A DNA stretch of 32,000 nucleotides. Source: Geobacter metallireducens GS-15. GTDB taxonomy: Bacteria > Desulfobacterota > Desulfuromonadia > Geobacterales > Geobacteraceae. The notes under the pieces were generated by a model. The model worked only from the letters and a program-made list of their open reading frames with translations, did no database searches and was not told where the DNA came from. The position numbers and the translations under genes were made by a program. Shown one piece after another: positions 1,422-18,533 of this stretch (positions are counted from its first letter, which is position 1; the number at the start of each line of letters is the position of its first letter). The DNA is taken from contig NC_007517.1 in NCBI RefSeq assembly GCF_000012925.1, forward strand, positions 3,450,001 through 3,482,000. The letters are read 5' to 3'.

Positions 1422-1715
1422 ATGACGAAAGCCGATTTAGCCGACAAAATTCAGGAAAGGATCTCTTGCCAGAAGAAGGAAGCCGTTGAATTGGTGGAAC
1501 TCGTCATGGAATCGCTCAAGGATGCCATTGCGACCGAAGGACTTGTGAAGATCAGCGGTTTTGGAAATTTTGTCGTTCGGCAGAAGACGGATAGAGCCGG
1601 AAGGAACCCGCAGACCGGGGAGACAATTACCATTTCATCTCGGAAGGTTCTGACGTTCAAACCAAGCGTGATCTTGAAAAATCGGATAAATTCCAGCTTG
1701 ATGTCAAGTGACTGA
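1422..1715 (+). CDS. IHF/HU-family DNA-binding protein (IHF-alpha-like), island-borne paralogue
   Basis: An internal ATG at 1422 is preceded by GGAG/GGGAG (1407-1421). The product 'MTKADLADKIQERISCQKKEAVELVELV...[37 protein letters not shown]' carries the GFGxF and R-x-GRNPxTGE signature. The 39 upstream codons of the track ORF (1305..) look non-coding. Confidence 0.85.
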   Translation: MTKADLADKIQERISCQKKEAVELVELVMESLKDAIATEGLVKISGFGNFVVRQKTDRAGRNPQTGETITISSRKVLTFKPSVILKNRINSSLMSSD

Positions 1716-1720
1716 TAGCA

Positions 1721-4702
1721 TTAGTCTCGTTGAACAAAGAACGGGGAAAGGTTTATCATTGCTTCCCGTGCCTTCATAATATCAGTCCCAACCTTCCGTG
1801 AAAGAATTTCAACAAGGTCTTCTTGATTCGGTTGACCGAGTACCATCCTATAAAGAAGACGCTGCTGCTTCAACCATTCTAATCGCTGGTGTTCCTCGCT
1901 AAGAGGAACACTGAAGATCCATCTTCTTGATTGAGCACCATTGCAAACCCACCAGGGTGACATTCCTGATTTATCGCTGAGAGTATCGTGCGCAAGACGC
2001 TCAAGCGTTTCCCACGGACTCCCAGAATTAGTCTTCCCGTAGATATCTACTTTAGATGCAATCGCCTGCCGAATACATAGTCCACCAAACCTTTGAATAC
2101 GACCCTCCCGCTGTTCCAAGTCAACAGGGTTCCTCGGAAGATCCCAATGAACCACAGTGTCGCACCAAAGGTGGAAATCCAGACCTTCCTGACCTACGGA
2201 CGTTGTTACTAAGACGTGAGGCCAGAATGGCGAATTAAAAGCCTTTTGAAGATCCTCAGTCCGCAACTGAGCTTCACCACCCTCTTGGAGGGCACCCTCC
2301 TTCATATCAATAAACGGCAGAGCAGCGTGGCAGCGCAAATTAAATGACGTTTCTCCGCTTGCAGCAGGAGCAGTTAACCTGAAAGATCCTGTTCGCAGCC
2401 TGAGAGCAGTCCGAAGCGCCTTTAAAAGATCTGATCCCTCGGCACCTCGCGTCTTCCGCAATATCCAGAAATGTTCGTCGAGAACGGCTTCAAGATTGCC
2501 ATCTTTCACCGCCTTACGTATTGCGTCCGGATAGGTATCATCTCTCGCTTCAAGTGCTGCAGCAAATACGGGGTGATCGAGGTATGACCTGAAGCCGTTC
2601 CATGACAGATCGAGTGTTTCGGCAAACCCTGATGCAGTTACCGCATCCGGCCAGTGTCTCTTCAAGGCACGCGCCAGAACAACCCCGGGCGATGAAAGAG
2701 CGTAATCTACAAGGTCTTCCAACTCTTTCGGGGTGACATGACCAACAGGTTTCCCTGCTTCATCCTCCCACTTCTTTACTGCGGCAGAAGAACCGGCCCC
2801 GAGAATGTCACGGCCTGCCGTCAGCGCTGCACGCCAGGCCGCTCCGATGAATCGCGCAGGTTTTGTATATTCAGCATCCAGGCGCGCAAGAAGTATCCAC
2901 GTTCGTCGCGCTTTTCCGCTTGATTCGACAGAAATTCCGAGATCCTTCAGTGCCTTTTTGATTTGGTCACGAACATTTTTCTTCAATCTGTCTGGGGCAC
3001 TCAATGTCACCAGAGGATCGATTTGAGAAAGAAAGATGGAGGGATGAAAGAGGCCAAGCAGTTGGGGCCGCTTCGGAGACGGTTGAAGAAGGCGCCTTTT
3101 GGAAACGCTTTCATAAACAACGTTAGTCCCACGCGCAGAAGCTACTTCCACGTCATAACTAAGTAAAGCAGCAACTGCCTGTGGAACGGCCCGGAAACGA
3201 CTGAACACCAACGCCTTGCCAGTCGTCTTTCCTTTCCATTTTCCTCGGAGGGGCCACCATGGGAATGATGGCGATACCCATGGCAAAGAGAGGGATTCCG
3301 GAGAAAGTCGTTGACGTAACGCGCGCATTTTTGGATGAGGGGGATCAAATGGCTTGAGTTTATCGCGAGATGATTTGCGGAACCAGGAAATGCCGCGTCG
3401 AGGTATGCATTTGGCATGGCGACGCGCAACGTAACGGATTGACATAGTCTGCATCGGGATTGGAATTGAGGACCAATAAGGAACCGCCCACGGATGGTGA
3501 CGCAGTTGGAAACAGTCGGCAAGATGTTTAAACGTCTTGATGTCTGCGCTGATCACTGACGAGGGAAGGTGTTCTGTTCGGAAATCATCCCAACCATCTG
3601 GATGCGCCCCCCTCTCTGTCCGAGCGACAATACACGAAAGAAGTGACTCAATTTCTATTTTTGCGACAGCTGCTTCAGATGAGGTAGGCGTACCCTTTCG
3701 AATTTCTTTTTCCAACACCCCAAAAGATTTCTGGCACCTGCCCAGACGAACTCCGCAATCATCAACATTTCCCCACAGAAATTTCAGAAGGCTGAGAAAT
3801 TCCGTATGGTGAGCGCTGCCTTCCGACTCTTCCCAACGACGGGAATACATCCTGTAGGGAGTTGCAGACAACAGCAGCAAACCAGGCCGACAAGAAGGGT
3901 CATCACCTCTCAGGACATTGATAACCCGTTTTTCTGCATTGTCGAGATCCGGCGCCAGAAGATCCCGAAAGCGTTGGAACTCGTCAAAAATTACCAGGTC
4001 GGGTGTTAATGTCCTTATTGCACATGCCGCTAGAGCATTTCGGAGGTGTGCTACAAAATCGAGTGCCTTTTTCGATTGAATTTCCAGGTTCTGAACGACG
4101 GACTGGCCTTTTCCAATGTCGAACTCCTCGCGAACAGATCGGATAAAGGACTTCAGCAGTGTGTCCGTAACTTTACTACGTTGCGTATAGACCGCAGCGC
4201 CCCAGGATCTTGAAGCTGAGCGCCGAAACACCTTTTCATCAACCAATTCAAGAAGCTCTGGCCACGCTGACTCTATAAGCGCAAAAATCAACGCCCGTTC
4301 TTCACATCGACCAGCACTTTTTCGTTTGCCACTTCTGAGAGGAATTGATGTATCCGGGGTGAGAGTGTAAATAGCAAGTTGTCTGTCCGAAGGCTTGACC
4401 GATGTCGCCATGAGGGTCAGACGATCCGTACGACTGGTGGCCGAATCTCTTCGATCATGCGGAATTACTTCCAGCAATTTGTTGCGATTCTGACGAGCTA
4501 CAGTAAGGTTACTGCAGACATAAAATACAACCAGCGGCCGAGTTTTTCCCTCCATCATCTTTTTAACAAGTGCCTGAGCAACAACAGTTTTCCCAAGGCC
4601 AACTTCATCGGCAACCAGAAACCGGCGTGATCCGTTTGGATCATGAAAGGCTTTCAGAATTCGAGCAACAGTTGCTTCCTGAAAAGGTTTCGGGTCGCTC
4701 AT
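1721..4702 (-). CDS. SNF2/SF2-family helicase-ATPase, last gene of the seven-gene defence operon
   Basis: 993 aa. Motif I is 'ADEVGLGKT' (about 4586-4600), motif II 'VIFDEFQRF', motif III 'LLLSATPY', and motifs V/VI 'LVTTSVGQEGLDF ... DLPRNPVDLEQREGRIQRFG'. The start lies 4 nt after the stop of the PLD gene. Confidence 0.85.
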   Translation of the reverse strand: MSDPKPFQEATVARILKAFHDPNGSRRFLVADEVGLGKTVVAQALVKKMMEGKTRPLVVFYVCSNLTVARQNRNKLLEVIPHDRRDSATSRTDRLTLMATSVKPSDRQLAIYTLTPDTSIPLRSGKRKSAGRCEERALIFALIESAWPELLELVDEKVFRRSASRSWGAAVYTQRSKVTDTLLKSFIRSVREEFDIGKGQSVVQNLEIQSKKALDFVAHLRNALAACAIRTLTPDLVIFDEFQRFRDLLAPDLDNAEKRVINVLRGDDPSCRPGLLLLSATPYRMYSRRWEESEGSAHHTEFLSLLKFLWGNVDDCGVRLGRCQKSFGVLEKEIRKGTPTSSEAAVAKIEIESLLSCIVARTERGAHPDGWDDFRTEHLPSSVISADIKTFKHLADCFQLRHHPWAVPYWSSIPIPMQTMSIRYVARRHAKCIPRRGISWFRKSSRDKLKPFDPPHPKMRALRQRLSPESLSLPWVSPSFPWWPLRGKWKGKTTGKALVFSRFRAVPQAVAALLSYDVEVASARGTNVVYESVSKRRLLQPSPKRPQLLGLFHPSIFLSQIDPLVTLSAPDRLKKNVRDQIKKALKDLGISVESSGKARRTWILLARLDAEYTKPARFIGAAWRAALTAGRDILGAGSSAAVKKWEDEAGKPVGHVTPKELEDLVDYALSSPGVVLARALKRHWPDAVTASGFAETLDLSWNGFRSYLDHPVFAAALEARDDTYPDAIRKAVKDGNLEAVLDEHFWILRKTRGAEGSDLLKALRTALRLRTGSFRLTAPAASGETSFNLRCHAALPFIDMKEGALQEGGEAQLRTEDLQKAFNSPFWPHVLVTTSVGQEGLDFHLWCDTVVHWDLPRNPVDLEQREGRIQRFGGLCIRQAIASKVDIYGKTNSGSPWETLERLAHDTLSDKSGMSPWWVCNGAQSRRWIFSVPLSEEHQRLEWLKQQRLLYRMVLGQPNQEDLVEILSRKVGTDIMKAREAMINLSPFFVQRD

Positions 4703-4706
4703 GATA

Positions 4707-6482
4707 TCAAACCAGCCCCTGTGTAATCATCTTCCATAATTCCTGAAATTTCTCAATTTCCGCCAGCTCCTCTGGGGTAGCATCGGTTTCATGTTGTTCA
4801 AAAGCCTTCAGAAAGGAGGTAACGCGTAGGTTTATATCGGCAAGCGTTTTTCGGTTTCTGGTCCACGCTCGAAGAATATCTTCAAGAGATGGCGCAATTA
4901 ACTCCATTTGGAATGAAACTCCGGAATCAGTTGAACCAGTTTTATCCGAAGTCCAGTCACCACCGCCATCACTCCCAGCATTATCGAGGAGAAGACTTCT
5001 CAGCCACTGAAGAAACATTCTTGGCCCAAGGTATGAAGCAAAGGCAAGCCGATCCCGTTCTTCACCAAGTGGAGGATTAACAGGAACTCGCTGGCACCAT
5101 TCCTGGGATTTTTCATTCAATGACAGGCGTATATGAATGAATTCACTATCACGCGGTCTCGGGACCAGGGGAAGAATAAGCGATGAAGCCCCCCTTGGCC
5201 ATGTATGTAATGCCTCTCCGAGAATGCCAACTTCCAGTTCGATCGCTGGCTTATGTGGATGAGGCGGGACCTTTGCGACAAGTTCATTTCTATCCGCATG
5301 AATTTGCCGCTGAACATCCCAGATTGCAGCAACCTCATTTCGAGCGTCCGCCAAATCTTTCTCGGTAGGATCGTCTGGATCGATGACCGGGGGCATGGAC
5401 GAATCAAACTCTTGAGATGAATCTGCAAAAGTGCGTAAACCTTTATAAACGGTCTCGTCCACGGTGAGTTCAGCTAATACCTCGTAATTCTCACTCCAAC
5501 CTCTTGTAGTCGCATTTGCGCTCCCAACCCACAAAGTGCGCCCCAAAGAATGCTTAACGGACAATATTTTCGCATGCAGTCCACGGGAAACATCTTCATC
5601 TGATTCCATAGCCTCGTCAAACTCAGGATGCGGTTCATCGGTAAGGGCCTCATCCAGGTACAACATTTCGGCATATGAAGAGAGTGGTTTCTTCGCTTGA
5701 GCTAGAAGTTTCGCCAGTGCAGTACCCGTTGAGAGTATTGTTCGATGAGTTTTTTCGTCTGCCCCCCAGCTTCCGAACTTTCGTACCGTGTTAGCATCCA
5801 AAAAAGGACTCACCAATAAGAGCTCGGATACACCTTTCGGTTCGGATGGGATATCGCGAAGTTCACCGGGGCAAAACAACTTGACATCTTTAACAGAAGT
5901 CCCTGCCGGCGCGTCCCATTGTACACCAGCGACCTTTAAGCGTATTATTTCAGGGAGTTCTGCGAATTCGGCGAGCTTCTTGACAAGTGGAGGTATGCCA
6001 GGAACTATGGTTCCCCGCTGGCCAGGGGTTCCAGTAAGGAGAATTCCCGTATCCCACGAAATATCTTGAGTCAGATTCCGGCTTCCCAACCAAAGCCGCC
6101 ATACCAGTCGACCATCGGCATCATTCCGATAACTGACGACTGTTGTTTTCGGATGCCACGATCTTTTTCTTTCATCAGCAGGAACCTCGCGAATGAATTG
6201 ATCACAAATGCCAATAATTCGGGAGGTCTTTCGTGGAAGGGAAACCCTTCCTCTCTGCACAACAAATCGGACACGTCGTCTCAGCATTTCGCAAGCATCA
6301 GCAAGATCCATCTTTGTGCCTGAACCACGATCATCATCCAGGCCAGCAAATGCCAGAAGTGCGGCAACTACAGCAACAAGATCGGCAGAGTAGGTAGCAA
6401 CTACTGCATACTCCACTCTCCAGCCGGGATCAGGTCTGATTGCATCTAGGTATGGCAAGCTGTCCCAATTTTGCCTGGTCAT
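4707..6482 (-). CDS. PLD-superfamily protein with two HKD motifs (single-chain nuclease-type PLD)
   Basis: The motifs are 'WHPKTTVVSYRNDADGRLVWRLWLGSRNLT' (about 6075-6155) and 'LHAKILSVKHSLGRTLWVGSANAT' (about 5514-5576). The track ORF starts at a TTG at 6527. The ATG at 6482 gives a classic ATGA overlap with the stop of the upstream ORF (6479-6481), so it is preferred. Confidence 0.8.
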   Translation of the reverse strand: MTRQNWDSLPYLDAIRPDPGWRVEYAVVATYSADLVAVVAALLAFAGLDDDRGSGTKMDLADACEMLRRRVRFVVQRGRVSLPRKTSRIIGICDQFIREVPADERKRSWHPKTTVVSYRNDADGRLVWRLWLGSRNLTQDISWDTGILLTGTPGQRGTIVPGIPPLVKKLAEFAELPEIIRLKVAGVQWDAPAGTSVKDVKLFCPGELRDIPSEPKGVSELLLVSPFLDANTVRKFGSWGADEKTHRTILSTGTALAKLLAQAKKPLSSYAEMLYLDEALTDEPHPEFDEAMESDEDVSRGLHAKILSVKHSLGRTLWVGSANATTRGWSENYEVLAELTVDETVYKGLRTFADSSQEFDSSMPPVIDPDDPTEKDLADARNEVAAIWDVQRQIHADRNELVAKVPPHPHKPAIELEVGILGEALHTWPRGASSLILPLVPRPRDSEFIHIRLSLNEKSQEWCQRVPVNPPLGEERDRLAFASYLGPRMFLQWLRSLLLDNAGSDGGGDWTSDKTGSTDSGVSFQMELIAPSLEDILRAWTRNRKTLADINLRVTSFLKAFEQHETDATPEELAEIEKFQELWKMITQGLV

Positions 6483-7696
6483 GATGCACTTCTTAAATCC
6501 GACAGAATCCTTCGGACGTTGTACCAACGGTATGAAAGCGGTTCGGCGAGAGTATTGTCTTCAATTCCCCACTCCGCTCTACGTTTCTTGGCCGCAGGCG
6601 TTGAAGGTAATCTTGACCTAGTGCCCTTACGACGTATTTCAGCCTTTTGATAAACCTCCAGAAGATCCAAATAATTGTGCCCTCCCTTATTCAGCCACAA
6701 TTGGGTCTCGCGAAGAAGTGTGGTGAATTGTGGTGGAATACCCGGGATATCTTGCTCAACGGAGCTAATATCAAGATTTTTCGCAGGAGTTATGTACTGA
6801 GGGATAGTCTTGAGAATTTGTTTCCGGTGGTGACTTGGCGTTTCATTTCCATCACGTTCTCGTAATTCTTCTACAAGTGCCGAATAGATCGCACGGCCAA
6901 TGGCAGCGAGTGCGGAAGCTCGTCCAGCTCGTCTTAGCGCTGCACGATCATCAGTATCAGCAATAGCCATGACCGTACGATCCCAAGGGGATTGAATTTC
7001 TTCCACCGGCAGGGCTCGCTCAACCAGTGATGATAGCAATGACGTTTTGTCTGGGGTTCCGGGCCTGGTAACAGCACTCAAATGTCGCCGTAGAAACGCA
7101 GCCTCGTCAGGCTGTATATCAAACGTGAGAGAAGCGCTCTTATCCGTCCACTCTTTTGGTGGTCTTGGAATGCTTGAAAATAACTCCAATCCTTCTTCGG
7201 TAGGTTCGCCATCGTCATCTACAAGTTGAGGAACCATAGTGCGCTTCACCAACATTCGATTAACAACCGCCCTTCCAGGAATAGTGCCCGACATTGTCGG
7301 GCGAAGAATCCCCCATGTCCCCAGCGCTGTCCAGTAAACCATAGAAGCAGGCTGAGAAGTCGGACCGGGGTAAGACCTCCCCCCGATAACCCCATCTTGA
7401 CCGGTTCTCTTTAAACGTCCTGCGAGGCTGATCTCCATACGGGAAATGGCACGTTCCGGTGTTTCGCTCAGGTTTCTATTCCGTGCTTCTTCGTAAAGCC
7501 ATGGAACAAAGAGGATGTATCTTAGACGTGTTTGGAGAACTGAAGTCCCAGGGAAAAAACGGTTCGCATATCCCTGGTGAAGTGCGAGGAACCCGACTTC
7601 GTCTCGTACCCCCTGCTCATCGTTACGCAGTTTCGCCTCGGCCCGCCTCAAAGCATCTCGAGATAGCACCGTCCAACCTAATGCTGGCTCCAACAT
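6479..7696 (-). CDS. Hypothetical 405-aa protein, first gene of the helicase/PLD trio, with no catalytic motif recognised
   Basis: A long uninterrupted ORF. Its ATG lies 5 nt downstream of a perfect AGGAGG within the 11-nt spacer after jetD. The stop overlaps the PLD start (ATGA). The N-terminus contains 'FFPGTSVLQTRLRYILFVPW', and the C-terminus is basic. Confidence 0.7.
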   Translation of the reverse strand: MLEPALGWTVLSRDALRRAEAKLRNDEQGVRDEVGFLALHQGYANRFFPGTSVLQTRLRYILFVPWLYEEARNRNLSETPERAISRMEISLAGRLKRTGQDGVIGGRSYPGPTSQPASMVYWTALGTWGILRPTMSGTIPGRAVVNRMLVKRTMVPQLVDDDGEPTEEGLELFSSIPRPPKEWTDKSASLTFDIQPDEAAFLRRHLSAVTRPGTPDKTSLLSSLVERALPVEEIQSPWDRTVMAIADTDDRAALRRAGRASALAAIGRAIYSALVEELRERDGNETPSHHRKQILKTIPQYITPAKNLDISSVEQDIPGIPPQFTTLLRETQLWLNKGGHNYLDLLEVYQKAEIRRKGTRSRLPSTPAAKKRRAEWGIEDNTLAEPLSYRWYNVRRILSDLRSAS

Positions 7697-7698
7697 GC

Positions 7699-7704
7699 CC
7701 TCCT
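7699..7704 (-). promoter_or_regulatory. Shine-Dalgarno AGGAGG for the 405-aa ORF, inside the 11-nt jetD/ORF405 spacer
   Basis: The minus strand reads TGA-TATAGGAGGGC-ATG across 7710..7694. Confidence 0.6.
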
Positions 7705-7707
7705 ATA

Positions 7708-8913
7708 TCATTGGGTTTCTACAGCCGGCGTGAAAGGATTAACATTTTCCTGTTCTAGTGTCTTTGGCGGGTCTGTCGAAATGATAGCAGCCGCCAATAA
7801 AGCGATAGCCGGATATTTCTCAGCCGTCCGTTTGACTTCGTCCACCCGCAGGCTGGGTTTTGGCAGACCGCACGAGGCAAGGAGATCAACAGTCATTAAA
7901 TGAGGTTGCAAGGTCCGACGTAATAACCCTTGTACGTAGACAAATATTTTCAGTCCGCCCTCGTCAATATCCCCCCAATGGAAAAAAGGCATTCCAGATG
8001 GTAGTGAGACATCAAGCATCCGAAGAAAGTCAGCAAGACCTGGGGAGGGGAAGCCGGCTGTATAAAGAACAAGCCCGTTATCTCGAATCTCGGCGGCATA
8101 ACGATTGAAGCTTGCAAGATTTTCTACAGTCAGAACGTACTCTGGCAACTTATCGGCCGAAACTCCCCGAATAGCTTGAGGTGGCAATCCCACGAAAGGC
8201 CGAATGCCTTCGCAGTCGAGGTGACGGTCAGAAAGCTTCAAAACAACCGGCCCGCTAAGCAATAATGGAGGAGGAAATCTGACCAGCCCAAGCGTTTCTA
8301 ACAGCTCTTCGCCCGTCAGCTCTGTCGGATGGTATTTTTTCCAGACTGACGTAAATCGTGCCAGCATACCCTCCATAGCCTTGGAGTCCCCGAACTCGCG
8401 AGTACTGAACGTCCGCAGATCGAGATTGAGGTGACGGCCGGCGACAACCGCCTCCAATGCCCGGACCATCAGTCGGGCTGACGCGGTATCCCCCGGAGAC
8501 ATGCCAGCGGCCGACTGGTTTCGGCTCCACTTGCCGAGAAGGTCCTCAACCCATTCATTTATCCAAGTTTCTCGCCCGCTGAGCGCCGTTTCCAGTATGG
8601 AGCGGGCATCATCTGCCTGCTTGGCAGCCAGCGGCATCCCCAGATAATTGGCTAAGCCAGGACCATCTGTCAGGGTGATTCGTTTCAGAATGTGGCTTTC
8701 ATACCCTCTCCCCCATTCGAGCGCCACTGTCCCTGCCGAGGCTGCTTCAAGGAGCCCTGCGTGAATGGCCTCCTTAGCTTCAGGAAGAGACGCTTCAAAA
8801 TATTGTGGGGCCCTGGCTTGAGTGATTGGCAGTCGAACCAATCGGGAACGGTCGGGATTAGCCTGCCAGGCATCGAGGAGTTTCCTAAGGAGTTGACGGC
8901 TAGACTGGTTCAT
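7708..8913 (-). CDS. jetD: Wadjet JetD (MksG-like, Toprim-containing nuclease subunit)
   Basis: 401 aa. The C-terminal Toprim-like motifs are 'LTVENLASF' (acidic E) and 'FHWGDIDEGGLKIF' (DxD). It is the fourth gene after jetABC and overlaps the jetC stop by 14 nt. Confidence 0.8.
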   Translation of the reverse strand: MNQSSRQLLRKLLDAWQANPDRSRLVRLPITQARAPQYFEASLPEAKEAIHAGLLEAASAGTVALEWGRGYESHILKRITLTDGPGLANYLGMPLAAKQADDARSILETALSGRETWINEWVEDLLGKWSRNQSAAGMSPGDTASARLMVRALEAVVAGRHLNLDLRTFSTREFGDSKAMEGMLARFTSVWKKYHPTELTGEELLETLGLVRFPPPLLLSGPVVLKLSDRHLDCEGIRPFVGLPPQAIRGVSADKLPEYVLTVENLASFNRYAAEIRDNGLVLYTAGFPSPGLADFLRMLDVSLPSGMPFFHWGDIDEGGLKIFVYVQGLLRRTLQPHLMTVDLLASCGLPKPSLRVDEVKRTAEKYPAIALLAAAIISTDPPKTLEQENVNPFTPAVETQ

Positions 8914-11900
8914 GAAGGAACTCCGCCGTTCCCGAAGCCTTCCGGTAAGGGTTGTCGGTTCTCAGCATTGCCCGCATGGCAGGTTTGATGGAAATCACCT
9001 CCGTCTCCACCGTGCCGCCGTCTCGCGTTACCCAGACAATAGTGTCCATCACCTCGGCCATTGTGGCGAATTTTTCGTCGGGCGCAGCGACAATAAGCTG
9101 AAGCTGGATGTTCTTCAGAAACTCGATGCAGCTGTGGCAGGTTGCGACACTGAGCTTCGAGAATGCCTCATCGAAAACTGCCAAGCTCATGCCACCGTGA
9201 TGTTTACCGTATTCTTCCTTGAGACGGTAGGCCGCTGCCAGTGATGCGCCGATAGCAACATAGAACGGGGTCTGGTTTTCGCCACCGGAACCCTTCTGGA
9301 TACGATGTTCGAGGTCGGATGTTGGGGTCCCCTCCGTATCACACATCTCCACATCAAACACCAGAAAGTTCCGGTAGTCCTGCAGCCTCTCCGCGGCCTT
9401 GGGATCCTGCAAAGCGGTGGTAATATCTTCCAATGCCTTGCGGTGCGGGCTATTGGAATCTGCAACAGGATCAAACAGTCCGCCCACTTCACGTGACGCC
9501 GGGCTATTGCAGGCCTTGGCAAAATCAATGATATGCTTAAATTCTGGGTTGGAGCTGGAACGAAACTTGTAGATTTCGCCATGGAAAGGATGCTTCTCCA
9601 GCGTCTTGTTAAGCTGGGTGATCGACCCTCTTACGGCCTCGACCTTGCCTATCAGGCGGCCTACAAACTTGGAGCGGAAGGTGTCCTCAGCTTCCTGGAG
9701 TGCTCTGGCCGATTTTTCGCGGTATTCGGCCAGAGTGGTTTCGACCAGGTGTTTTTTCTTCCGTCGGATAGTGACGGCGTACTCTTCGAAATGCTCTGGT
9801 CGGGATTCTTCGCCCTCTTCCAGAGCGAAGCGGAGATAATACTCCGTGTACTCCTTGATCATTCGAGTATTGTTTTCTTCGATTGTTTTTAACGCTGAAC
9901 CTATCTCCTTTTCAGCCCTTTCACAGATCGCCGCAAAATCCCCGGCGTTCTGCTCGCGCCACCGGTCAAGGGTATCGGCTGCCTTCGCAGGATCAAGCAG
10001 CGGATTCCCACGCTTCTCTTCCAAGACAACTTGCAGAGCGTCCATCTGAGCGTCAAGAGCCTTCAATTTGTCATCGTTTTGTGCGTACTCTTTTTCAGCT
10101 TGAAGGCGCTTTTCATCCAGATCCTTGAGACTTTTCTTTATTCCTTCTGCCTTGTCCTCAAGCTTCTTGATTTCATCTCTGAGTTTCTGCTCCCGGGCAT
10201 CAGAAGCCAAGGCTGCAAGTTTTTCCTGCATCTCCTGGATGGCTTTCTCAGAAGCTGTGCGCTGCTCTACGAGAGCGGACAATGAAATAACGGCATCGCC
10301 CGAGAACTGCCGCTTGCAATCTTCCAGCAGAACTTTCAGACTGCCGAGATTCTCCTTTTCTCCTACTACCCCCGCCTGTTTTGTCGACAGCTCGTTCAAA
10401 TCACGTTGATAAGCAACCCGCAACCCTTCTCGGGAACCTCTCCCCAAGATTGGCTGTACGTTCTTCAGCTCTGATACTGTACCACCGGAACTCAACATCC
10501 CATCGGCAGTTGCGGCCCGGTCGTGGTGAAGCAGGTCCTTCTCGGTATCGACGCAGACGATATTCCCGAGACGGCGATTGATAAACGCCCTCGCATGCAC
10601 ATCATCGGTGTTGAGGCAATCGGCTAGAGTGCCCTGCTGTTTGGAGGCCTTCCAGCGGTCGGTCTGGGTTGTATTGATGATATGACAGCCGGGAAACTCT
10701 TGCCTCCCCTCATGGCGATAGAGGTGAACTGCCTTGCGGGCCTGCTCAGGAAGCACTACCAGGGCCTCGCGGATATTGCCGAGAATGCTTTCAATGGTGC
10801 CGCGCCACGTCTCGTCGGCAACATCCACCAGATCGCACAATGGCTTGGATTCAATGCCATGTTTCTTGAAAAACTGAATCAGATTCCGAGTGTTTGGTTG
10901 AAGCGGGGCTTTACCGTGTTGTAGCTGCTTGAGTGCTTCAACGAGATTTTTCAGCCGCTTCTCCAAGTCCTTATGATCCGCACAGAAATCATCATAGCGG
11001 CTGCTCAGTTCCGGTAAAGAGCGCTCAACTGCCACCAGCAGCAATTCAAGACAGATGTCAACCTCGGAAGGATTTGACGGCCAGACCGCGGTGCTTATCA
11101 TGTCGTCACCCGGCATCAGTTTGACTATATCGGAAATGGCCACGGCCAGAGAATCATTGACCGGCACATCCTTAAGTTTTTCAAAGCGCTGCAGCAGCCT
11201 GCGGATCTCGGTAATCCTCGCCTTCACATCTCCTTCGCGCTGCCTTGCCTGATCACTTTCTAATTGCAGGCGATCCCGCTGGACTTGGACATCACAGAGC
11301 TTCAACTCCCCACGTTTCTCACCGAGTTCCTCTTGAACCTTTGCCTGCTGGTCCTCAAGAACCGTCTTGTCCTTACCCATATGCTCGCGGGCCTCTTCAA
11401 GATCGGCCAACGCGCCCCGCAAGGGGTCGGCGCTTCCCTCAATCTGCTCGATACGGGCATTCAACGAGACATACTCGGCCATCACATGTTGGGCGCGAGC
11501 ATTTTCCACCTTCTCGCAGCAAACTTCGAGGCGAGTCAAATCAGCGACCCGCCGACTAACCGATTCGGTCTTCTCCGCCATGTCACGATAATTTTTCAAG
11601 GCGCTCTGCAGCTCCTTGATCTGCAGGTCATCACGATCGAGCATGTAGCGGCGGATGAACTCGGTAGGATCGGAGATCTTCTCCAGGCGGAACGCTGCTT
11701 GGAGAGCCTTGAGAACGGTCTTGTCATTGTTGGGTGAACCTGGGTGTTCACTCAGGCAGCCGTAGAGATCCTGGGTGAATTTTCCCGGCTCGTGGTGAAA
11801 CCGGGTGGCGTGGCACCTTTTCGCCAAGCGCTCCTTGACGCGCGCCCAGGGCAGGACAATCGTGCTGTCGCCTTTGCCCTGTTCCAGGAACAGGTCCTTG

Positions 11901-12322
11901 TGCCCAACCAGGCCGGGGCAAATGAAATACCCTTCCACCTTTTCTGCCATGTCTGCCATGCAAGCATAAATGCCAAGCCCGACACAGGTGGTTTCCCCGG
12001 TCTCGACATCATGGAAGTTCAGGGCCAGATAGCAATTCGCTTTGTCTCGCGGCTTGATCTTCGTGGCAAGTTCCGGTTTTTTCGGGTCCGACATGACCCC
12101 AAGGACGTATTCCCAGAGTTTGCGGGAGGATTGTTCATTGCTCCCCCGATTTAGGACCAGGAGCCGCTTGTTTGCCCCGGTCAGCACAGTCTGGATGGCG
12201 TCAAGCAAGGCCGATTTGCCAGCGCCATTATCGCCAATGAAGGCTGTATTGCCAACGATTGGGATTTCTACGGCTTCAAGGCGGAACCATTGAATGAGAA
12301 CGGCTTTAATCAATGTCTTCAT
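8900..12322 (-). CDS. jetC: Wadjet JetC (MksB-like SMC-family ATPase)
   Basis: 1140 aa. The N-terminal Walker A is 'IGDNGAGKSALLDAI'. A very long E/K/L/Q-rich coiled-coil occupies the middle. The C-terminus has the signature 'GSGGENQ' and Walker B 'LAVFDEAFSKL'. ATGA overlap with jetB. Confidence 0.85.
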   Translation of the reverse strand: MKTLIKAVLIQWFRLEAVEIPIVGNTAFIGDNGAGKSALLDAIQTVLTGANKRLLVLNRGSNEQSSRKLWEYVLGVMSDPKKPELATKIKPRDKANCYLALNFHDVETGETTCVGLGIYACMADMAEKVEGYFICPGLVGHKDLFLEQGKGDSTIVLPWARVKERLAKRCHATRFHHEPGKFTQDLYGCLSEHPGSPNNDKTVLKALQAAFRLEKISDPTEFIRRYMLDRDDLQIKELQSALKNYRDMAEKTESVSRRVADLTRLEVCCEKVENARAQHVMAEYVSLNARIEQIEGSADPLRGALADLEEAREHMGKDKTVLEDQQAKVQEELGEKRGELKLCDVQVQRDRLQLESDQARQREGDVKARITEIRRLLQRFEKLKDVPVNDSLAVAISDIVKLMPGDDMISTAVWPSNPSEVDICLELLLVAVERSLPELSSRYDDFCADHKDLEKRLKNLVEALKQLQHGKAPLQPNTRNLIQFFKKHGIESKPLCDLVDVADETWRGTIESILGNIREALVVLPEQARKAVHLYRHEGRQEFPGCHIINTTQTDRWKASKQQGTLADCLNTDDVHARAFINRRLGNIVCVDTEKDLLHHDRAATADGMLSSGGTVSELKNVQPILGRGSREGLRVAYQRDLNELSTKQAGVVGEKENLGSLKVLLEDCKRQFSGDAVISLSALVEQRTASEKAIQEMQEKLAALASDAREQKLRDEIKKLEDKAEGIKKSLKDLDEKRLQAEKEYAQNDDKLKALDAQMDALQVVLEEKRGNPLLDPAKAADTLDRWREQNAGDFAAICERAEKEIGSALKTIEENNTRMIKEYTEYYLRFALEEGEESRPEHFEEYAVTIRRKKKHLVETTLAEYREKSARALQEAEDTFRSKFVGRLIGKVEAVRGSITQLNKTLEKHPFHGEIYKFRSSSNPEFKHIIDFAKACNSPASREVGGLFDPVADSNSPHRKALEDITTALQDPKAAERLQDYRNFLVFDVEMCDTEGTPTSDLEHRIQKGSGGENQTPFYVAIGASLAAAYRLKEEYGKHHGGMSLAVFDEAFSKLSVATCHSCIEFLKNIQLQLIVAAPDEKFATMAEVMDTIVWVTRDGGTVETEVISIKPAMRAMLRTDNPYRKASGTAEFLHEPV

Positions 12323-12939
12323 TGTCCCCCCCCTGCTTCATCGGTTCCGTTTTCCTCGCCTTCTCCTCCTTTGGTGTATTCTTCCAAAGCCTGCAAGAAA
12401 CCGTGCGTTACTATGTCACGGATCGATGGGCGAATGCGGAAGCGGATCGCCTTGTCCTCGTCTTCGTCGATCTCTAAAAGCCCTTGGCGGGAGAAGGTTC
12501 TAAGAATTTCGCGCAGCCTCACCAAGCCTGGCCGCTTTCTGCCGGTGTGCGCAACAAAGGTGTCCAGCATGACCTCGCTGTCGGTAAAGACCTGCGAAAA
12601 CTCTCCCACTCTGCACTCCTGGGCGGCTCTCTCGTAGATGACCCGCAGGACGAGGAGGAACAGAGAGTGTTCAGTGTCCAGGCCAACGGTCAGATGAGAT
12701 TCCCGGGGGACCACGCCAACATACCCTGCCGTCCGGTCGCATATCAATTCGAGATTCAGGGCATCGAACAGGTTTCGGTAATAATCCTCGGCGTCGAGGA
12801 TCTGGTGAAAAGAACGCTGGTCCCTGCTCTTGTCTCCGAAAAGGAACTGACGATCCAGGGCAATTGATGCTGCGCGACGTAAATCCTCTGCGGCCAGGTT
12901 TTCATCCTTATCAAGCATGCGACGGAGCTCGTGAAGCAT
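12319..12939 (-). CDS. jetB: Wadjet JetB (MksE-like KITE subunit)
   Basis: An acidic 206-aa protein in the canonical position between jetA and jetC. The call rests mainly on size, synteny and operon coupling. Confidence 0.7.
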   Translation of the reverse strand: MLHELRRMLDKDENLAAEDLRRAASIALDRQFLFGDKSRDQRSFHQILDAEDYYRNLFDALNLELICDRTAGYVGVVPRESHLTVGLDTEHSLFLLVLRVIYERAAQECRVGEFSQVFTDSEVMLDTFVAHTGRKRPGLVRLREILRTFSRQGLLEIDEDEDKAIRFRIRPSIRDIVTHGFLQALEEYTKGGEGEENGTDEAGGGQ

Positions 12940-12942
12940 CCC

Positions 12943-14367
12943 CTACCCCTTCCTTTCGACGATAAAATCGCTGCATTCCAACAGTGGTGTATCAAGCCGA
13001 TCCCCTGTGCGGCGAATGTTGAACAGAGGCATGTTCGGGACCGGTTTGCCCTTCATCTGGTTGAGAAAAGGGACAAAGGCAAATGCCACCAACTCATCGA
13101 CCGATTCGATCTTGAAATCCTTAGCCGCGAACGTGGCGCGCTCCCCCATCTGCCGGTCGATGAACGCAACCACTTTGGCAGGTGACATGACACGCCGCTG
13201 CAGGTAATCCTGGATAAGCCGCAGGCGCTCTTTGACTTCTGTACTGAGTTCCTGCTCCCTGGCCAGCTCGATGAATTGAGGTTGTCGGCGTCTCTGTGGT
13301 TTGCGGATGCTGCGATGACTCAACAGCGCATGAGATATCCAGCGAGGAGGTTGGGGTAAAGCGGGGAGCTCTCCATCGGGCTGCTCCAGCGATCTCCTGC
13401 CGAGCTCTTCCAGCAGCTTGATTCCTCGGTTGGTTAGATCGGGAACGTTGCGATCCATGTAACGGACCATTTCCGCCACCCGTGATTCCAGGCGCATGCG
13501 GTACAAATCGATGGCATCGAGTCGCCGATCAACTGAGCGGAACACCCTGGCGATAAAATGAAGATCGCTTATCACCTTTTCCCGCGCTGCGTCTGGCGCC
13601 AGGTTCTTGTCTTCCTGGTAGACCTTGATCAGCGCCGTCATGATTGAGTCTATATGTTCGATCTGAATCAGGAGGTTCAGGACATTGGCGCGATGACGAA
13701 AGGGGTTGTTTTCCGCCTGGAGGGACTTGTAATCGGAGATCAGCAGATTCTCGACAAAATCATCGAAAAAAGTGGACAGGGCAAGTTTAGGGTTGTGCTG
13801 ACGGGTGATGATGTCCTGAAAGCCGCGGAGGCCGGAGAAGATATTTTGCAAGTGACGGGTGAAGTCACGCGCCGCTCTAACAACCTCAATGAATGCGCGG
13901 GCATTGTCTTCAGGGTGATTGGCAATCGCCTGGAGTTGTAGATGGATAGAGGCGATGGTGCTGCCGTAGTTCTTCTTTTCTGCATGGGCGACACCTTCAA
14001 GGGCCTCCAAGAGAAGACTGGCGTGAGGTGGCATGATGACGTTGACGTGATAGCCGTCTTCTTCCTCTTCGAGCCAGCCTGTCACGACGAGGCGCTTGTA
14101 GATGTACCTGGCGGCCGGCCCTGGCGCATTGCTGATATCCTCCTCCGCGTCCCCTTCCTCATCGACGATTTGCAGCAGGCGGCCTTTGCGTTCCAGCAGT
14201 TCTTCTATCTCACGGACGACATGACCGCGTCGTGGAAAAACCGCCTCGTTGGTTATATCCTCATCCGAGAAATACCTGAAAAGGAAGAGAAGGATTTCCT
14301 CAAAGAAATATCTGTTTGCGCCCGCGAGAGGCTTGAAGATTTCGTCGGGCAGCTTGTTGAAAAGCAT
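12943..14367 (-). CDS. jetA: Wadjet JetA (MksF-like kleisin subunit)
   Basis: 474-aa first gene of the operon, with its stop 3 nt before the jetB start. The call rests on size and order matching jetA-B-C-D, and no catalytic motif is expected. Confidence 0.7.
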   Translation of the reverse strand: MLFNKLPDEIFKPLAGANRYFFEEILLFLFRYFSDEDITNEAVFPRRGHVVREIEELLERKGRLLQIVDEEGDAEEDISNAPGPAARYIYKRLVVTGWLEEEEDGYHVNVIMPPHASLLLEALEGVAHAEKKNYGSTIASIHLQLQAIANHPEDNARAFIEVVRAARDFTRHLQNIFSGLRGFQDIITRQHNPKLALSTFFDDFVENLLISDYKSLQAENNPFRHRANVLNLLIQIEHIDSIMTALIKVYQEDKNLAPDAAREKVISDLHFIARVFRSVDRRLDAIDLYRMRLESRVAEMVRYMDRNVPDLTNRGIKLLEELGRRSLEQPDGELPALPQPPRWISHALLSHRSIRKPQRRRQPQFIELAREQELSTEVKERLRLIQDYLQRRVMSPAKVVAFIDRQMGERATFAAKDFKIESVDELVAFAFVPFLNQMKGKPVPNMPLFNIRRTGDRLDTPLLECSDFIVERKG

Positions 14368-14631
14368 GAGGCGCTCCAGCAGTGTAGCTGTTTTCAGTCC
14401 AATCCATCCAAGTGCAAAGTTGATTGCAGTTGCCGGCCATGATCAATGCATTTTCTCACACAAGTGCGACAGGATACGTCTCAAACTCTATTTACTGGAA
14501 CTTCCTATTTTGTGACATGCAACTTAGCCACCTAAGGCTACCAGATCACAACCCGGGCCTGAGATGACACTTCTCATAAGACTACCAATCGAAAATCAGG
14601 AAGCTCTGTCAAGTATGTCTAAGGGGGTTGG

Positions 14632-14946
14632 TCAAGGGTGTTGGATGACGCGGAACTGTTCCTCGCTATCCGCCAGCTTCCGCTCAAGGATTCCCAACTC
14701 TTCACGAGTATAAATGCTCTCCCCTCGTGCGATCTCGCGCTTGAGGCGTTTGATCCGGCCGGGAAGACTGTCCGTCTGGAGGCGGCTGTCACCATGCAGC
14801 AGCGTCATGTCCTTCACCGCCGGGTTGCGGGATGAAGTCGACACATCAAATTCCCCTACACCACGCTTATGCGAATCATTGTCAGAGCATCCAGCAGCGA
14901 GAAGAAGAAGCATGGTGGCAACTACTGGCGATGTCTTGGCGTTCAC
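14632..14946 (-). CDS. Small putative lipoprotein
   Basis: 104 aa with a GTG start. The signal peptide has the lipobox 'LLLLAAGC'. Function unknown. Confidence 0.5.
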   Translation of the reverse strand: MNAKTSPVVATMLLLLAAGCSDNDSHKRGVGEFDVSTSSRNPAVKDMTLLHGDSRLQTDSLPGRIKRLKREIARGESIYTREELGILERKLADSEEQFRVIQHP

Positions 14947-15156
14947 GTTCTCTTGCTCTTGGCTGGGTCAAGAAGTTCTTTCAGTTCCTCAATCTCTGCC
15001 CTCATCACGGATTTTTTTCCATTTCCTTCCATAGCATAATTGTCTTCGCATGTTTTCGATACTGAGCGCCTAATTAGCGAGCAGCCATACTTCAGGGACC
15101 GCAACAACAATAAGCAACTCGTGGATCAGAGTTGCAATGGGCGAATGTCCAGATGA

Positions 15157-15613
15157 TTAATGCTTATTAGTGACCGTTCCCATTCTCGCTAGCTTTAGAG
15201 CCTGTTCGAACGTGACAGACATACCGCCATTTCTCTTCGCGAAAGCCTTGGCATTCTGCTTACTGACAAAGGCCAACTGCTCCACATTAGACATAAGCCC
15301 CTTCTGGTTACTGCCAACAATCCATGCCGCCGATTTTGCTTCTAACAGCTTCCCCGAATTGAAATCAGCCACCTTGATCGATATGGCCTGCTTACCAGTT
15401 CTCTCGTCCATCGCCATCGCAGCACAATGCAAACTGCAGGTCCCAACGGTAGTCCCATCAGTATAAACGATTAGCATTCGGCTATGGGCAAAACTTGTCC
15501 GGTTCATCCCGCACATCAGGCAAGACGCCGGGGCCTCTCACCCTCTCTAGTGCGAAGGCTGGGGAATCTACAAAAACAAGGCAAAGCATGATGCCCAGCA
15601 TAAATTTGTCCAT
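15157..15613 (-). pseudogene. NosL-like (CxxCGM motif) periplasmic protein, separated from its signal peptide by a frameshift
   Basis: The body ORF 15157..15516 has 'SCLMCGMN...YTDG...CSLHC' and a C-terminal 'AKAFAKRNGGMSVTFEQA' typical of NosL-family proteins. A signal-peptide-like ORF 'MDKFMLGIMLCLVFVDSPAFA' starts at 15613 in a different frame and stops shortly after. A TGA at 15538-15540 blocks the body frame. The shift must lie around the G4/C4 run at 15530-15533. Confidence 0.45.
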
Positions 15614-15630
15614 GATTTTCACCTACTAAC

Positions 15631-15900
15631 TCATCTGCCCCTGAACCGCTCTTGGAATAGCTTCAATAGGATAGCCATGAGAAGATTCTTGATGTTGACG
15701 CCGCACCTGGCCAAGGTGGCGTTGATTTTGTCGCCTTCTTCGCCCTTGAGGTAGTTGCGGCCAATCCGGTGGTCTTGCTTTACTTTGCCGATGATCGGCT
15801 CGATACTGCTGCGCCTTCGACGCCATTTCTAGGCGCTAGCCTTCACACTCCTCTTTTTCTTGTTGGCTAGATAGATCTCAATGGTGCTGAGTATTGCCGG
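15631..15900 (-). mobile_element. IS5-family (DDE_Tnp_1) transposase C-terminal remnant, degenerate
   Basis: A frame different from the track ORF reads 'AILSTIEIYLANKKKRSVKASA*KWRRRRSSIEPIIGKVKQDHRIGRNYLKGEEGDKINATLARCGVNIKNLLMAILL', which is the conserved 'R(R)SxIEPxIGxxKxxxRxxRNxLKGxxGDxxN' C-terminus. There is an in-frame TAG at 15829-15831. No N-terminal part and no inverted repeats were found. Confidence 0.6.
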
Positions 15901-15910
15901 TGTCCCCTTT

Positions 15911-17617
15911 TCAACCGAATGCGCAAACTGCGATGATCTCGATCAACCTGTTGCGCCAAGCCGACAGGTGTTCAACGCTATCCTTATGTGGATGATTCTT
16001 TCTTTCCAAGACGATGCCTTTACGCCTCAAGCTTTTTTGGGTCTCGTCGAATAGCTCCCTTTCCACGTAATCTCGTACAACTTCGTCGGCCAGGTCCCTA
16101 GTGACCACAGTAGATGAAATCAAAACGTACGTAGAACATCCCGATGGTAAGCCCGACTGATCAATCTCTACCAAGCAAACGTATTTTTCTCGATACCTGA
16201 ACCAGACATAAGCACATTCCCGTCGCTTCTCAGCTGTATTACCATATGTCTCCCGTAAAGACGGCTTACGAGAACCTCTCTGTCTTTGCCAGACAGGCTG
16301 CCTTGACAATGAAATACGAGTCACCGCTGCAATGCTGCTGTCCTCATTGACCAGCCTATACCCTTTCAGCCCTCTGACCAACCGCACAAAATCGTCCAAA
16401 GGCATTGAGTAGTCATCGGGCTCGGCAGCATCACCATCGTCTCGCTCCACCTTCGCCTTCGCAATGGCAATATCGTCCATGGGATAGTCTTGCTGGGTAC
16501 TCAGCTCAACATCCTTATCGCCAGGCATTAACTTGGGAACCTTTCCCTCATCCTTGCGTGGTGTAGGAATGTAGTCCTTGTTCTCCCTTATGGCACGTGC
16601 ATTACAGTTGGCGATGCTCACATGGTTCTGGAGGATCCTTCGGATGTAACGGCTGGAAGGATTGCTGGGTGCAAGGTTCTTCCCTGACTTTGCTGTCAAA
16701 GCCGGGAAAGTTTCCGTATCCCCATCAGGATCATCAATTTCATACGTTCGTCGATCAATAGTGATGCTGTCGAAAGGAAAGAGGCTGTCTTCTTCCAATA
16801 CCTGGAACACAACAAAAGTCTTGCCACCTTCAGGATTGGTGGCAAGATGCCCTCTCGCCTTGATTGTTATTTCCTGGTTGACTGGAAAATCCACCTTGAG
16901 GCGTTGAAATTGACCACTATCGGCGTTAACGCTATTCCGAACCATTCTCATGCGACTACCCGCGAATCCATTAGCCAGAAATCGGACTATGCTCTTTGCG
17001 TCAGAATCCGCAGCGCCAGGTTTCATGGTGATCTTGGCGTGTAGGGTACTATCATCCAATGAATAGTCTTCGTGGAGGCGCTTTAGGTTTTGAGAAAAGA
17101 CCGCCTCACGCAAGGAGGTGGATTTGAAATAGTAGACGCCTGCGAGAACTGCGCAAGGAATGACGATCTTCATATCGTCACAGTGAAATACCAGACACTG
17201 CTGGTTCTTGCAGATGGCCGAGTTATTTTTGGTAAAATCGCTCTGATAGCGCGTGCTGGTCAACGAAAGATCGTATTCTAAGTCAGTTAACGCGTCCTGG
17301 ATCCGTACGATTTTATTATGCTCGGAGGAGTTGACAGTAAATTTACGGACGGTACCTAGCGCTGGTTCTTTGATCAGTTTCCTGCCCTTGGCGAAATAGG
17401 AGCCTACAGTGCAATACGAAAGGAGCTCAGGAGGGATGGTGTCGGCGAGATAATAACCGGTCTTGACGTTTTTAAACAGTAGCCTGATGAGGCAACGGGA
17501 TGAACTTACGTTTAGGTTGAGGATCCAGACGAGTTGAAAGCGATTTCTGGGATCCTCGGACCTCATCTTTGGCAGGATGTATATTTTGTCGAGGTCAGCC
17601 GGCACGTTACCCCGCAC
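15911..17617 (-). CDS. Hypothetical 551-568-aa protein immediately inside the transposon-like end
   Basis: A long ORF in low-G+C DNA. The track start is a GTG at 17617 and the first ATG is at 17566. No catalytic motif was recognised. The acidic central linker contains '[14 protein letters not shown]', and the C-terminal region contains '[11 protein letters not shown]...STYVLISS'. The 3' end abuts the IS5 remnant. Confidence 0.65.
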
Positions 17618-17623
17618 CGGAGT

Positions 17624-17669
17624 TGTAGCAATAACTATTGAAATGTAGCGTTAACTTCTGAAAATGACA
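17624..17669 (-). repeat. Transposon-end-like terminus: 5'-TGT end plus two tandem ~22-bp direct repeats
   Basis: Read inward on the minus strand, the end is TGTCATTTTCAGAAGTTAACGCTACA (17669..17644), followed by CATTTCAATAGTTATTGCTACA (17645..17624). The two copies agree at about 17 of 22 positions. comM homology stops at about 17670. Confidence 0.45.
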
Positions 17670-18533
17670 GTTCCCTCCGCCGATCAATCCCACATCCGAG
17701 ATAGTGTGATGGGGTGACCTGAACGGGCGCTGCGCCACGAGCGCATTGTCCCGGTCAAGGAGCCCCATGACGCTGTAAACCTTGGTCGTTTCGATGGCCT
17801 CCTCGAAGGACATGCGGGGAAGGATGGTCGGAATCCGCCGGGAGAGCATGGTCTTGCCGGATCCCGGCGGACCAATCATAATGATATTGTGAGACCCGGC
17901 GGCCGCCACCTCCAGTGCCCGCTTGGCATGTTCCTGCCCCTTCACCTCGGAGAAGTCGTCGCCCGCGTCGGCGCTCCGTGCGAAGAACTCCTCCACGTCC
18001 ACCCGGGACGGGTCGATGGACCGGTCGCCGTTGAGAAAATCCACTACTTCGGCCAGTTCCGATACGCCGACGACCTCGATACCCTCCACCACCGCTCCCT
18101 CGCGGGCGTTTTCCAGGGGAACCACGATGCCGCGCAGCCCCGCATTCCGGGCGGCCACGGCCACGGGGAGACAGCCGCGGACCGGTTTGACGCTCCCGTC
18201 CAGGGAGAGCTCGCCGAGGAGGAGGTACTCCTTGAGCCGCTCTCCCTTGACGACGCCGATGGCGGCCAGGATGCCGATGGAGATGGGGAGGTCAAAGGAG
18301 GCCCCCTCCTTCTTCAGGTCGGCGGGGGCCAGGTTGACGGTGATCTTGCGGGGGGGAAAATCGTAACCGGAGTTCTTGAGGGCTGATTTGACCCGGTCCT
18401 TGCTCTCCTTGACGGCGCCGTCAGGAAGCCCCACGGTGGCGAACTGGGGAAGTCCCTGGGCGATATCCACCTCCACGTCGACGATGACTGCGTCGATCCC
18501 GAGGAGAGCGCTGGAGAGGGCCTTGGCTAACAT
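17670..18533 (-). pseudogene. comM: comM/yifB Mg-chelatase-like AAA+ protein, 5' fragment truncated by insertion
   Basis: The N-terminal Lon-like domain and Walker A 'GPPGSGKTM' are present. The family-typical '[19 protein letters not shown]' is followed by an unrelated tail '[21 protein letters not shown]' instead of the expected Walker B region. About 288 of an expected roughly 500 codons are present. Confidence 0.8.

Follow-up and report, generated by a model that had tools for sequence, protein, structure and literature searches.

The window analysed here is a stretch of 32,000 nucleotides (nt) of the Geobacter metallireducens GS-15 genome (NC_007517.1, positions 3,450,001 to 3,482,000), in which a comM gene is cut short by DNA carrying a tnsE-like gene and a defence island. 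The segment 17624-17669 is very probably the left, tnsA-distal end of a Tn6022-like transposon of the Tn7 family that is inserted in comM and carries the defence genes as cargo. The features around this end, numbered from the first letter of the window, are:

17670..18533, minus strand: 5′ fragment of comM (yifB-family AAA+ ATPase), codons 1-288, ending ...GLIGGGN (Pfam ChlI and Mg_chelatase, TIGR00368)
17670..17674, minus strand: left copy of a presumed 5-bp target-site duplication, reading GGAAC in the sense direction of comM (the same five nucleotides occur at both ends of the Geobacter hydrogenophilus element)
17624..17669, minus strand: probable transposon left end, terminal 5′-TGTCAT followed by two abutting 20-nt putative TnsB-binding sites (repeat and motif search, junction alignment)
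17644..17663, minus strand: site 1, TTTCAGAAGTTAACGCTACA when read inward (repeat search)
17624..17643, minus strand: site 2, TTTCAATAGTTATTGCTACA when read inward (repeat search)
17607..17669, minus strand: tail of the interrupted comM frame, which stays open throughout the left end and has its TAA stop at 17609-17607
15911..17605, minus strand: predicted remote tnsE homologue of 564 amino acids (aa), GTG start at 17605 (predicted fold, weak TnsE_C matches in homologues)
1..15910, mostly minus strand: probable cargo, continuing beyond the window (Pfam and PADLOC; G. hydrogenophilus homology ends at the tnsE stop codon)

The minus-strand open reading frame (ORF) 18533->17607 matches the ComM/YifB model TIGR00368 over residues 7-288 only, which cover positions 3-284 of the 499 in the model (Pfam and NCBIfam search). 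After ...GLIGGGN, the ORF continues into an unrelated tail of 20 residues. The switch from comM to non-comM DNA is located at 17669/17670, where the G+C content changes from 0.61-0.64 on the comM side to 0.48-0.53 (about 0.50) on the island side. The cut in comM and the lower G+C content of the DNA beyond it had both been claimed in an original prediction made from the letters of the stretch, and both are borne out by the end of the model match and by the change in composition. The comM fragment of the window has 97.7% protein identity to that of G. hydrogenophilus. The DNA identity between the two loci is 92-97% in comM, 89% over the outermost 100 nt of the element, and about 75% in the tnsE-like gene, and is nil past the stop codon of that gene. 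This step in identity places the boundary exactly at 17669/17670 and marks the genes downstream as exchangeable cargo. ComM is a natural-transformation helicase, and its gene is inactivated in this Geobacter genome.

Read inward from 17669, the island DNA begins with TGTCATTTTCAGAAGTTAACGCTACA and continues with TTTCAATAGTTATTGCTACA. The terminal TGT occupies positions 17669-17667 of the minus strand and belongs to the TGTCAT at the junction. Sites 1 and 2 follow with a spacing of 20 nt and are 80% identical in the repeat search. The original prediction had described a TGT-terminated end with tandem 22-bp repeats. The terminus and the presence of two tandem copies stand, but the period is 20 nt and the copies abut, so that the proposed 22-mers overlap by 2 nt. 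A search for further copies, which had been suggested as a check, showed that the degenerate motif TGTAGCNNTAACTNNTGAAA occurs at two places in the 32 kb at three or fewer mismatches, both of which are the left-end sites, whereas 0.06 occurrences are expected from shuffled sequences. At up to four mismatches, the degenerate search of the window and of L001, a contig that reaches beyond its left edge (fetched loci carry L numbers), found the motif nowhere else. In an alignment of 11 junctions, from the window and ten other elements including Tn6022 of Acinetobacter baumannii, the TGTC directly after the GGG region of comM is invariant and is followed by two or three tandem sites. Across the window and the related loci, the 20-nt motif occurs at the ends of elements only, is present at both ends of the relatives, and always points inward. 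The left ends contain two or three abutting copies, whereas the ends on the tnsA side contain one terminal copy, separated by ~85 nt from three further ones. This asymmetry was seen in the tnsA-side ends L009, L015, and L027 compared with the tnsE-side ends of the window, L013, and L011.

The tail of the ORF could in principle be native to comM, altered by a frameshift or local divergence, with the repeats as a chance duplication; the 20 codons that stay open past the junction would agree with this. However, the ComM models stop at residue 288 of about 500, and conserved ComM sequence follows the GGG motif both in intact comM (PGE... in A. baumannii) and in the displaced 3′ fragments of relatives. 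Furthermore, the repeats match the motif at both ends of related transposons, far above chance. A native tail with chance repeats has a negligible probability, and was ruled out on the evidence of the intact comM, the 3′ fragments of relatives, the end motif, and the 11 junctions.

The same end is present in related bacteria. Searches with tblastn using the comM fragment of the window identified the same truncation, at residue 287/288 and directly upstream of a homologue of the 564-aa gene, in a metagenome-assembled genome (MAG) of Geobacter sp., in G. hydrogenophilus, and in three metagenome contigs; Citrifermentans bremense, a Trichlorobacter MAG, and one more contig came from additional look-ups. 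The degenerate end pattern TGTCNNTTTNANNAGTTANNGCTACA, scanned over one genome per species, was found at both ends of an element of Malonomonas rubra and at the left end of the G. hydrogenophilus element. The two matches in Malonomonas rubra are inverted and lie 42.8 kb apart on one contig. The first end abuts a comM 3′ fragment and leads into tnsA, tnsB with a Mu-transposase C domain, a TniB-type tnsC, and tniQ. The comM 5′ fragment adjoins the second end, and GCTGC flanks both.

The complete G. hydrogenophilus element is ~30.5 kb long. Its left end differs from that of the window at three of 46 positions and is inserted at the same site, GGAAC|TGTCAT, and its far side carries tniQ, tnsC, tnsB, and tnsA. 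The right end reads TGTCATTTTTAATAGTTCGTGCTAC..., with GTTCC (= GGAAC) before TGTCAT on the other strand, and lies beside a comM 3′ fragment; its terminal sequence is TGTCATTTTTAATAGTT..., with three more sites in addition. Removal of the element and of one copy of the duplication restores a continuous ComM, of which the two fragments total ~510 residues. TGTC opens each of the two ends in both the Malonomonas and the G. hydrogenophilus element. By comparison with these elements, we infer a 5-bp duplication GGAAC for the window element, one copy of which (17674-17670) is visible in the window. The comM 3′ fragment of the window genome should accordingly begin, on the sense strand, with ACGCCCCGCCCCGGCGAGGT....

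The core tnsA-tnsB-tnsC-tniQ is present in four related elements. The TnsB proteins of the relatives match solved TnsB structures with E = 6e-41 and the TnsB of Tn7 with 3e-17, and share 36-38% identity with TnsB of A. baumannii Tn6022; across the core proteins, the identity between the relatives and A. baumannii is 26-38%. The original prediction had read the terminus in the window as that of a TnsB-type transposon and the defence island as its cargo. The first of these claims gains support from the relatives, in which the same end is accompanied by tnsABC-tniQ, the inverted motif, a comM 3′ fragment, and 5-bp duplications. The second agrees with the genes past the tnsE-like gene, which are wholly different in every related element, even where the end and the neighbouring gene are shared.

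Tn6022 is the backbone of the AbaR islands of Acinetobacter. It is inserted in comM, has TGT/ACA termini and a 5-bp duplication ACCGC, and carries a remote tnsE near its left end, well away from the core genes (PMC10293859, PMC11014353). A. baumannii chromosomes filed among plasmid records were used for the comparison. The intact comM reads ...GTT GGG GGC GGT TCA CAC CCT AAA CCG GGT GAA..., and the interrupted gene reads ...GGG GGC GGT|TGTCAGTTCCACAAATAAATCAGAG..., followed by an inward-reading ORF of 598 aa. The five bases before this junction, GCGGT, are equal to the published ACCGC. The comparison of interrupted and intact comM of A. baumannii gives the junction GGT|TGTCAG with a 5-bp GCGGT, compared with GGC GGA GGG AAC|TGTCAT in the window. 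Three Geobacter-type elements are inserted at the exact position of Tn6022, and the junction of the window is shifted 3 nt downstream of it, with frame and orientation unchanged. The original suggestion that comM is a target of the Tn6022/AbaR type therefore extends to this locus. In both systems, the tnsE-side end abuts the comM 5′ fragment, the terminal TGTCA is shared, and the first 8 nt of the window element, TGTCATTT, are identical to those of a Tn6022-type right end in A. baumannii. Tandem end sites, 5-bp duplications, a distal remote tnsE, and defence or other accessory cargo are further likenesses. The two systems differ in the sequence of the sites and in the gene that follows tniQ, which is tnsF in Tn6022 and is not tnsF in any of four related elements. 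In addition, the comM frame of Tn6022 closes 15 nt inside the element and tnsE starts ~100 nt in, behind an AT-rich spacer, whereas the frame in the window reaches the start of tnsE. The hosts found here are Desulfuromonadales (Geobacter, Malonomonas, Citrifermentans, and Trichlorobacter). The element is very probably a further member of the known Tn6022 type within the Tn7 family. It extends this comM-targeting type beyond Acinetobacter, to Geobacter and related bacteria, and the insertion codon is the same in these distant hosts.

The gene at 15911-17605 starts 64 nt from the transposon terminus; a mechanical ORF list places its start at 17617 instead of the GTG at 17605. The 564-aa protein has 42 homologues, mostly from Geobacter, other Desulfuromonadales, and metagenomes. 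It has no above-threshold match in Pfam, NCBIfam, or PADLOC, and both a profile search of the sequences of the Protein Data Bank (PDB) and a tblastn search against plasmids were empty. The Pfam family TnsE_C gives weak, co-linear matches to the C-termini of 14 of the 22 aligned homologues, with the best E = 5e-4. The AlphaFold2 model of the protein, calculated on the homologue alignment, has a mean predicted local distance difference test score (pLDDT) of 79. The top seven Foldseek matches of the model in the PDB are to the TnsE C-terminal domain (5d17, 5d16, 9d5l), with a probability of 1.00 and template modelling (TM) scores of 0.60-0.66, and are followed by far weaker matches to OB-fold proteins. 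By its predicted fold, the gene is a remote tnsE, an identity that the original prediction had not recognised. Since the sequence-only searches failed, the identification is based on the comparison of folds and on the weak TnsE_C matches in homologues only. A tnsE-like gene also occurs in an internal position in L003 10001-11656 (Malonomonas) and in L033 5001-6677, with no end motif beside it. In Malonomonas, it is ~32 kb from the left end, which is followed by an outward-reading gene for a 488-aa DUF2971 protein. These internal positions suggest a gain of cargo between the end and tnsE, or composite elements.

The window element would, like others of its family, use a heteromeric TnsA+TnsB transposase. 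Its insertion would be site-specific, just after the codons of the comM GGG motif and ~40-57 bp before the Walker B coding sequence. TnsB would bind the two abutting 20-nt sites and cleave at the terminal TGT/ACA, and TnsA would cut the other strand. TnsC together with a TniQ-family selector would direct the insertion into comM and give rise to the 5-bp duplication, here GGAAC. TnsE would act as the alternative target selector, as in Tn7 and Tn6022, and send the element into conjugating or replicating DNA. Everything inward of tnsE, including Wadjet, ZacABC, and the rest, would be cargo. The junction, the terminus, the sites, the TnsE fold, and the full layout of close relatives are results of the analysis; that this copy has kept its right end and core genes, and the identity of the protein that recognises comM, are inferences.

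The element resembles Tn7 in its TGT/ACA termini, in the several short putative TnsB-binding repeats that are arranged differently at the two ends, and in TnsE as a probable second selector; its relatives add the 5-bp duplication and a TnsA+TnsB+TnsC core combined with a TniQ-domain selector. A further likeness is the probable anchor coding sequence, located ~+13 to +57 from the insertion point on the side of the tnsA-side end. The footprint of TnsD in glmS lies at a similar distance. However, Tn7 inserts downstream of glmS and leaves it intact, whereas the window element disrupts comM. The tnsE gene of Tn7 is the last of the tnsABCDE operon, and the operon lies at the right end, whereas the tnsE-like gene described here stands alone at the left end and reads inward. 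The distribution of sites also differs: in the elements described here, the tnsA-distal end has the abutting copies and the tnsA-proximal end the spaced ones. In Tn7, the arrangement is the reverse. Transposons of the Tn5053/Tn402 group, which encode TniA, TniB, TniQ, and TniR, share a Mu-type DDE transposase, a TniB ATPase, TniQ, and 5′-TGT ends with repeats, but they have no TnsA, employ a resolvase step, and target res sites, whereas the relatives of the window element encode TnsA and target comM. The terminus had originally been called Tn7/Tn402/Mu-style; because the relatives encode TnsA, it is Tn7-like, and the Tn402 and Mu parts of that description were rejected.

An island at comM could also have been produced by a tyrosine recombinase, as in the Tsy-type elements (YRec, helix-turn-helix protein, and TnsF), or by another integrase. 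The Tsy elements likewise split comM into 5′ and 3′ fragments around their cargo, but they lack inverted repeats or canonical ends, have neither TGT inverted ends nor TnsA and TnsB, keep the recombinase gene beside the comM 5′ fragment, and are inserted in the opposite direction (PMC10293859). The junction in the window has a TGT terminus, tandem sites of the TnsB type, and the tnsE-like gene. The 16 kb beside the end lack any recombinase gene and the ORFs from 1 to 17617 any recombinase domain, and the relatives with the same end encode TnsA and TnsB. An integrase-driven origin is therefore highly improbable.

Several observations weigh against a Tn6022-like transposon at this locus. The window contains no gene for a transposase, a recombinase, TnsA, TnsB, TnsC, or TniQ, and the window plus the 10 kb to its left yielded no tnsA, tnsB, tnsC, tniQ, second end, or comM 3′ fragment. 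This search for the far end used the exact end, degenerate site motifs with four or fewer mismatches, and tblastn for the comM 3′ fragment, over the window and L001. The scan with TGTCNNTTTNANNAGTTANNGCTACA found no end in the source genome, where the window region seems to be masked, and it also left unmatched the right end that exists in G. hydrogenophilus; the right end of the source genome must differ from the pattern, as that of G. hydrogenophilus does. The 564-aa protein itself matches Pfam TnsE_C with E = 0.19, below threshold, and hhalign gives it a marginal probability of 12% when compared with the protein that A. baumannii Tn6022 has in this place. The TnsF of A. baumannii has no tblastn match in any of the fetched loci, of which two complete elements were sampled in part.

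The missing core genes and far end would also be explained if the element were a decayed remnant, which has kept the left end, tnsE, and cargo, but in which tnsABC-tniQ, the right end, and/or the 3′ half of comM were deleted or rearranged, leaving it immobile on its own. The core genes, right end, and comM 3′ fragment were not found within 17.7 kb plus 10 kb of the left end, and there is no TnsB of the source genome among the best 120 homologues of the Malonomonas TnsB. However, the latter absence is uninformative, as the homologue search also missed the 1790-aa helicase of the source genome itself (best match 78% identical). The Logan contigs SRR22860061 and SRR22860050 (L001, L002) both break off ~17 kb beyond the left edge of the window, which points to a repeat, such as an insertion sequence (IS) element, at that place. 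Degraded and rearranged Tn6022 islands are common, according to the Peters laboratory (PMC11014353). On the other side, the tnsE ORF is of full length, the left end is intact to the terminal TGT, and the complete relatives are 30-43 kb long, so that an element of >28 kb is normal. If intact, the window element is >27 kb. A decayed remnant is the less likely state of the Tn6022-like element, although it retains an appreciable chance.

The selection of comM as a target was compared between the relatives and Tn6022. The tnsF gene of Tn6022 (orf3, about 481-498 aa) encodes a tyrosine-recombinase-like protein, forms an operon with tniQ, and is required for comM targeting. TnsF takes the Walker B coding region as its anchor, and movement into a conjugal plasmid is supported by TnsE (PMC10293859, PMC11014353). 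No two of Malonomonas, G. hydrogenophilus, L026, and L027 have the same gene after tniQ. In G. hydrogenophilus (L015 14303-16486), ORFs of 54 and 672 aa lie directly downstream of tniQ, at the place that tnsF has in Tn6022; the 672-aa ORF has no family match and shows no relation to TnsF in BLASTP, and the three other related elements lack it. The TniQ proteins of the relatives align with that of Tn6022 over the N-terminal TniQ domain only. TniQ of the relatives may plausibly read comM directly, in the manner of TnsD. The lack of a tnsF, seen in relatives only, lowers the case for strict membership in Tn6022, but not that for a Tn6022-like way of working. If the absence of tnsF holds, it would add a second way of reading the comM site.

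The comM reading frame is open across the left end of the window element and closes directly at the tnsE-like gene: the TAA stop at 17609-17607 is followed by one spacer base and then by the GTG at 17605. In eight of the nine left ends with an adjacent tnsE-like gene, the comM frame stops in the interval from 11 nt inside the tnsE start to 7 nt upstream of it (window, L013, L031, L019, L034, L004, L017, and L020), despite a distance of 64-146 nt from the junction to the start. The other two frames contain one to three stops each across the left ends. By mononucleotide shuffling, the probability of an open comM frame is 0.09-0.27 per element, and the elements are related and thus not independent. 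The frame closes within 12-15 nt in C. bremense, in the left end of Malonomonas, which has no adjacent tnsE, and in A. baumannii Tn6022. With a fixed insertion point, and with exactly 3 nt between the two types of junction, the comM frame always reads the terminal TGT as a codon for Cys.

A search of the minus strand between comM and the tnsE-like gene gave no sigma-70-like site. The sole match to a promoter-like consensus in the end region, at 17638-17665 (+), consists of TTGAAA, a 16-nt spacer, and GAAAAT (9/12 positions), and points outward, into comM in the antisense direction. The Tn6022 papers PMC10293859 and PMC11014353 do not mention the arrangement of the comM stop and tnsE start. This pattern may fit read-through from the comM promoter with translational coupling of tnsE. 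We put forward tentatively, as a possibility more doubtful than probable, that the left end of the Desulfuromonadales branch of Tn6022-like elements doubles as an expression adaptor, and that this branch also finds comM without TnsF, through direct reading of comM by TniQ. The tnsE gene would then be transcribed by read-through from the host comM promoter and its translation coupled to that of the ComM stub. TnsE would not be produced before the element has entered comM, and end-bound TnsB might gate tnsE. If true, the coupling of tnsE to comM would be a host-promoter-dependent switch between the two targeting pathways of Tn7.

In a bacterium that serves as a model of metal reduction, the assignment of the left end to a Tn6022-like transposon fixes one boundary of the defence island with its Wadjet, ZacABC, and further genes. 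It would also explain the arrival of the island, as the cargo of a site-specific transposon of the Tn7 family. The genome paper of G. metallireducens and its supplements mention neither comM, nor Tn7, nor the repeat sequences of the end (PMC2700814). From the left end inward, the probable cargo in the window consists of:

15157-15516, minus strand: NosL-like gene (Pfam NosL, E = 6.5e-10), seemingly short at the N-terminus with 119 aa
14632-14946, minus strand: small putative lipoprotein gene, between tnsE and Wadjet
14367-7708, minus strand: complete type I Wadjet jetABCD (jetA 12943-14367, jetB 12319-12939, jetC 8900-12322, jetD 7708-8913)
7696-1721, minus strand: zacABC (6479-7696, 4707-6527, 1721-4702; PADLOC, E 3e-88 to 3e-271)
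1422-1715, plus strand: HU-like gene
840-1106, minus strand: IHF-like gene
169-825, minus strand: gene for an RNase T-type exonuclease

Wadjet and ZacABC are arranged back to back on the minus strand, at 1721-14367. The NosL-like and putative lipoprotein genes are unusual cargo beside defence genes. The island goes on in the 10 kb to the left of the window (L001 10672-20657), which contains further island-type genes: a 144-aa gene, an SNase-domain gene, and genes for a 772-aa trypsin-TPR protein, a T5orf172/GIY-YIG-like protein, and the 1790-aa AAA_11/AAA_12 helicase with an MTES_1575 domain. Between the divergent IHF-like and HU-like genes, the segment 1227-1389 contains four copies of TAATCGGC(A/G)T-N8-TGACCC, two of them direct (1230-1254 and 1264-1288) and two inverted (1340-1360 and 1364-1384). 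These repeats are absent from the multicopy-sequence supplements of the G. metallireducens genome paper. By its layout, the array looks like a set of binding sites for a regulator or for the HU/IHF proteins.

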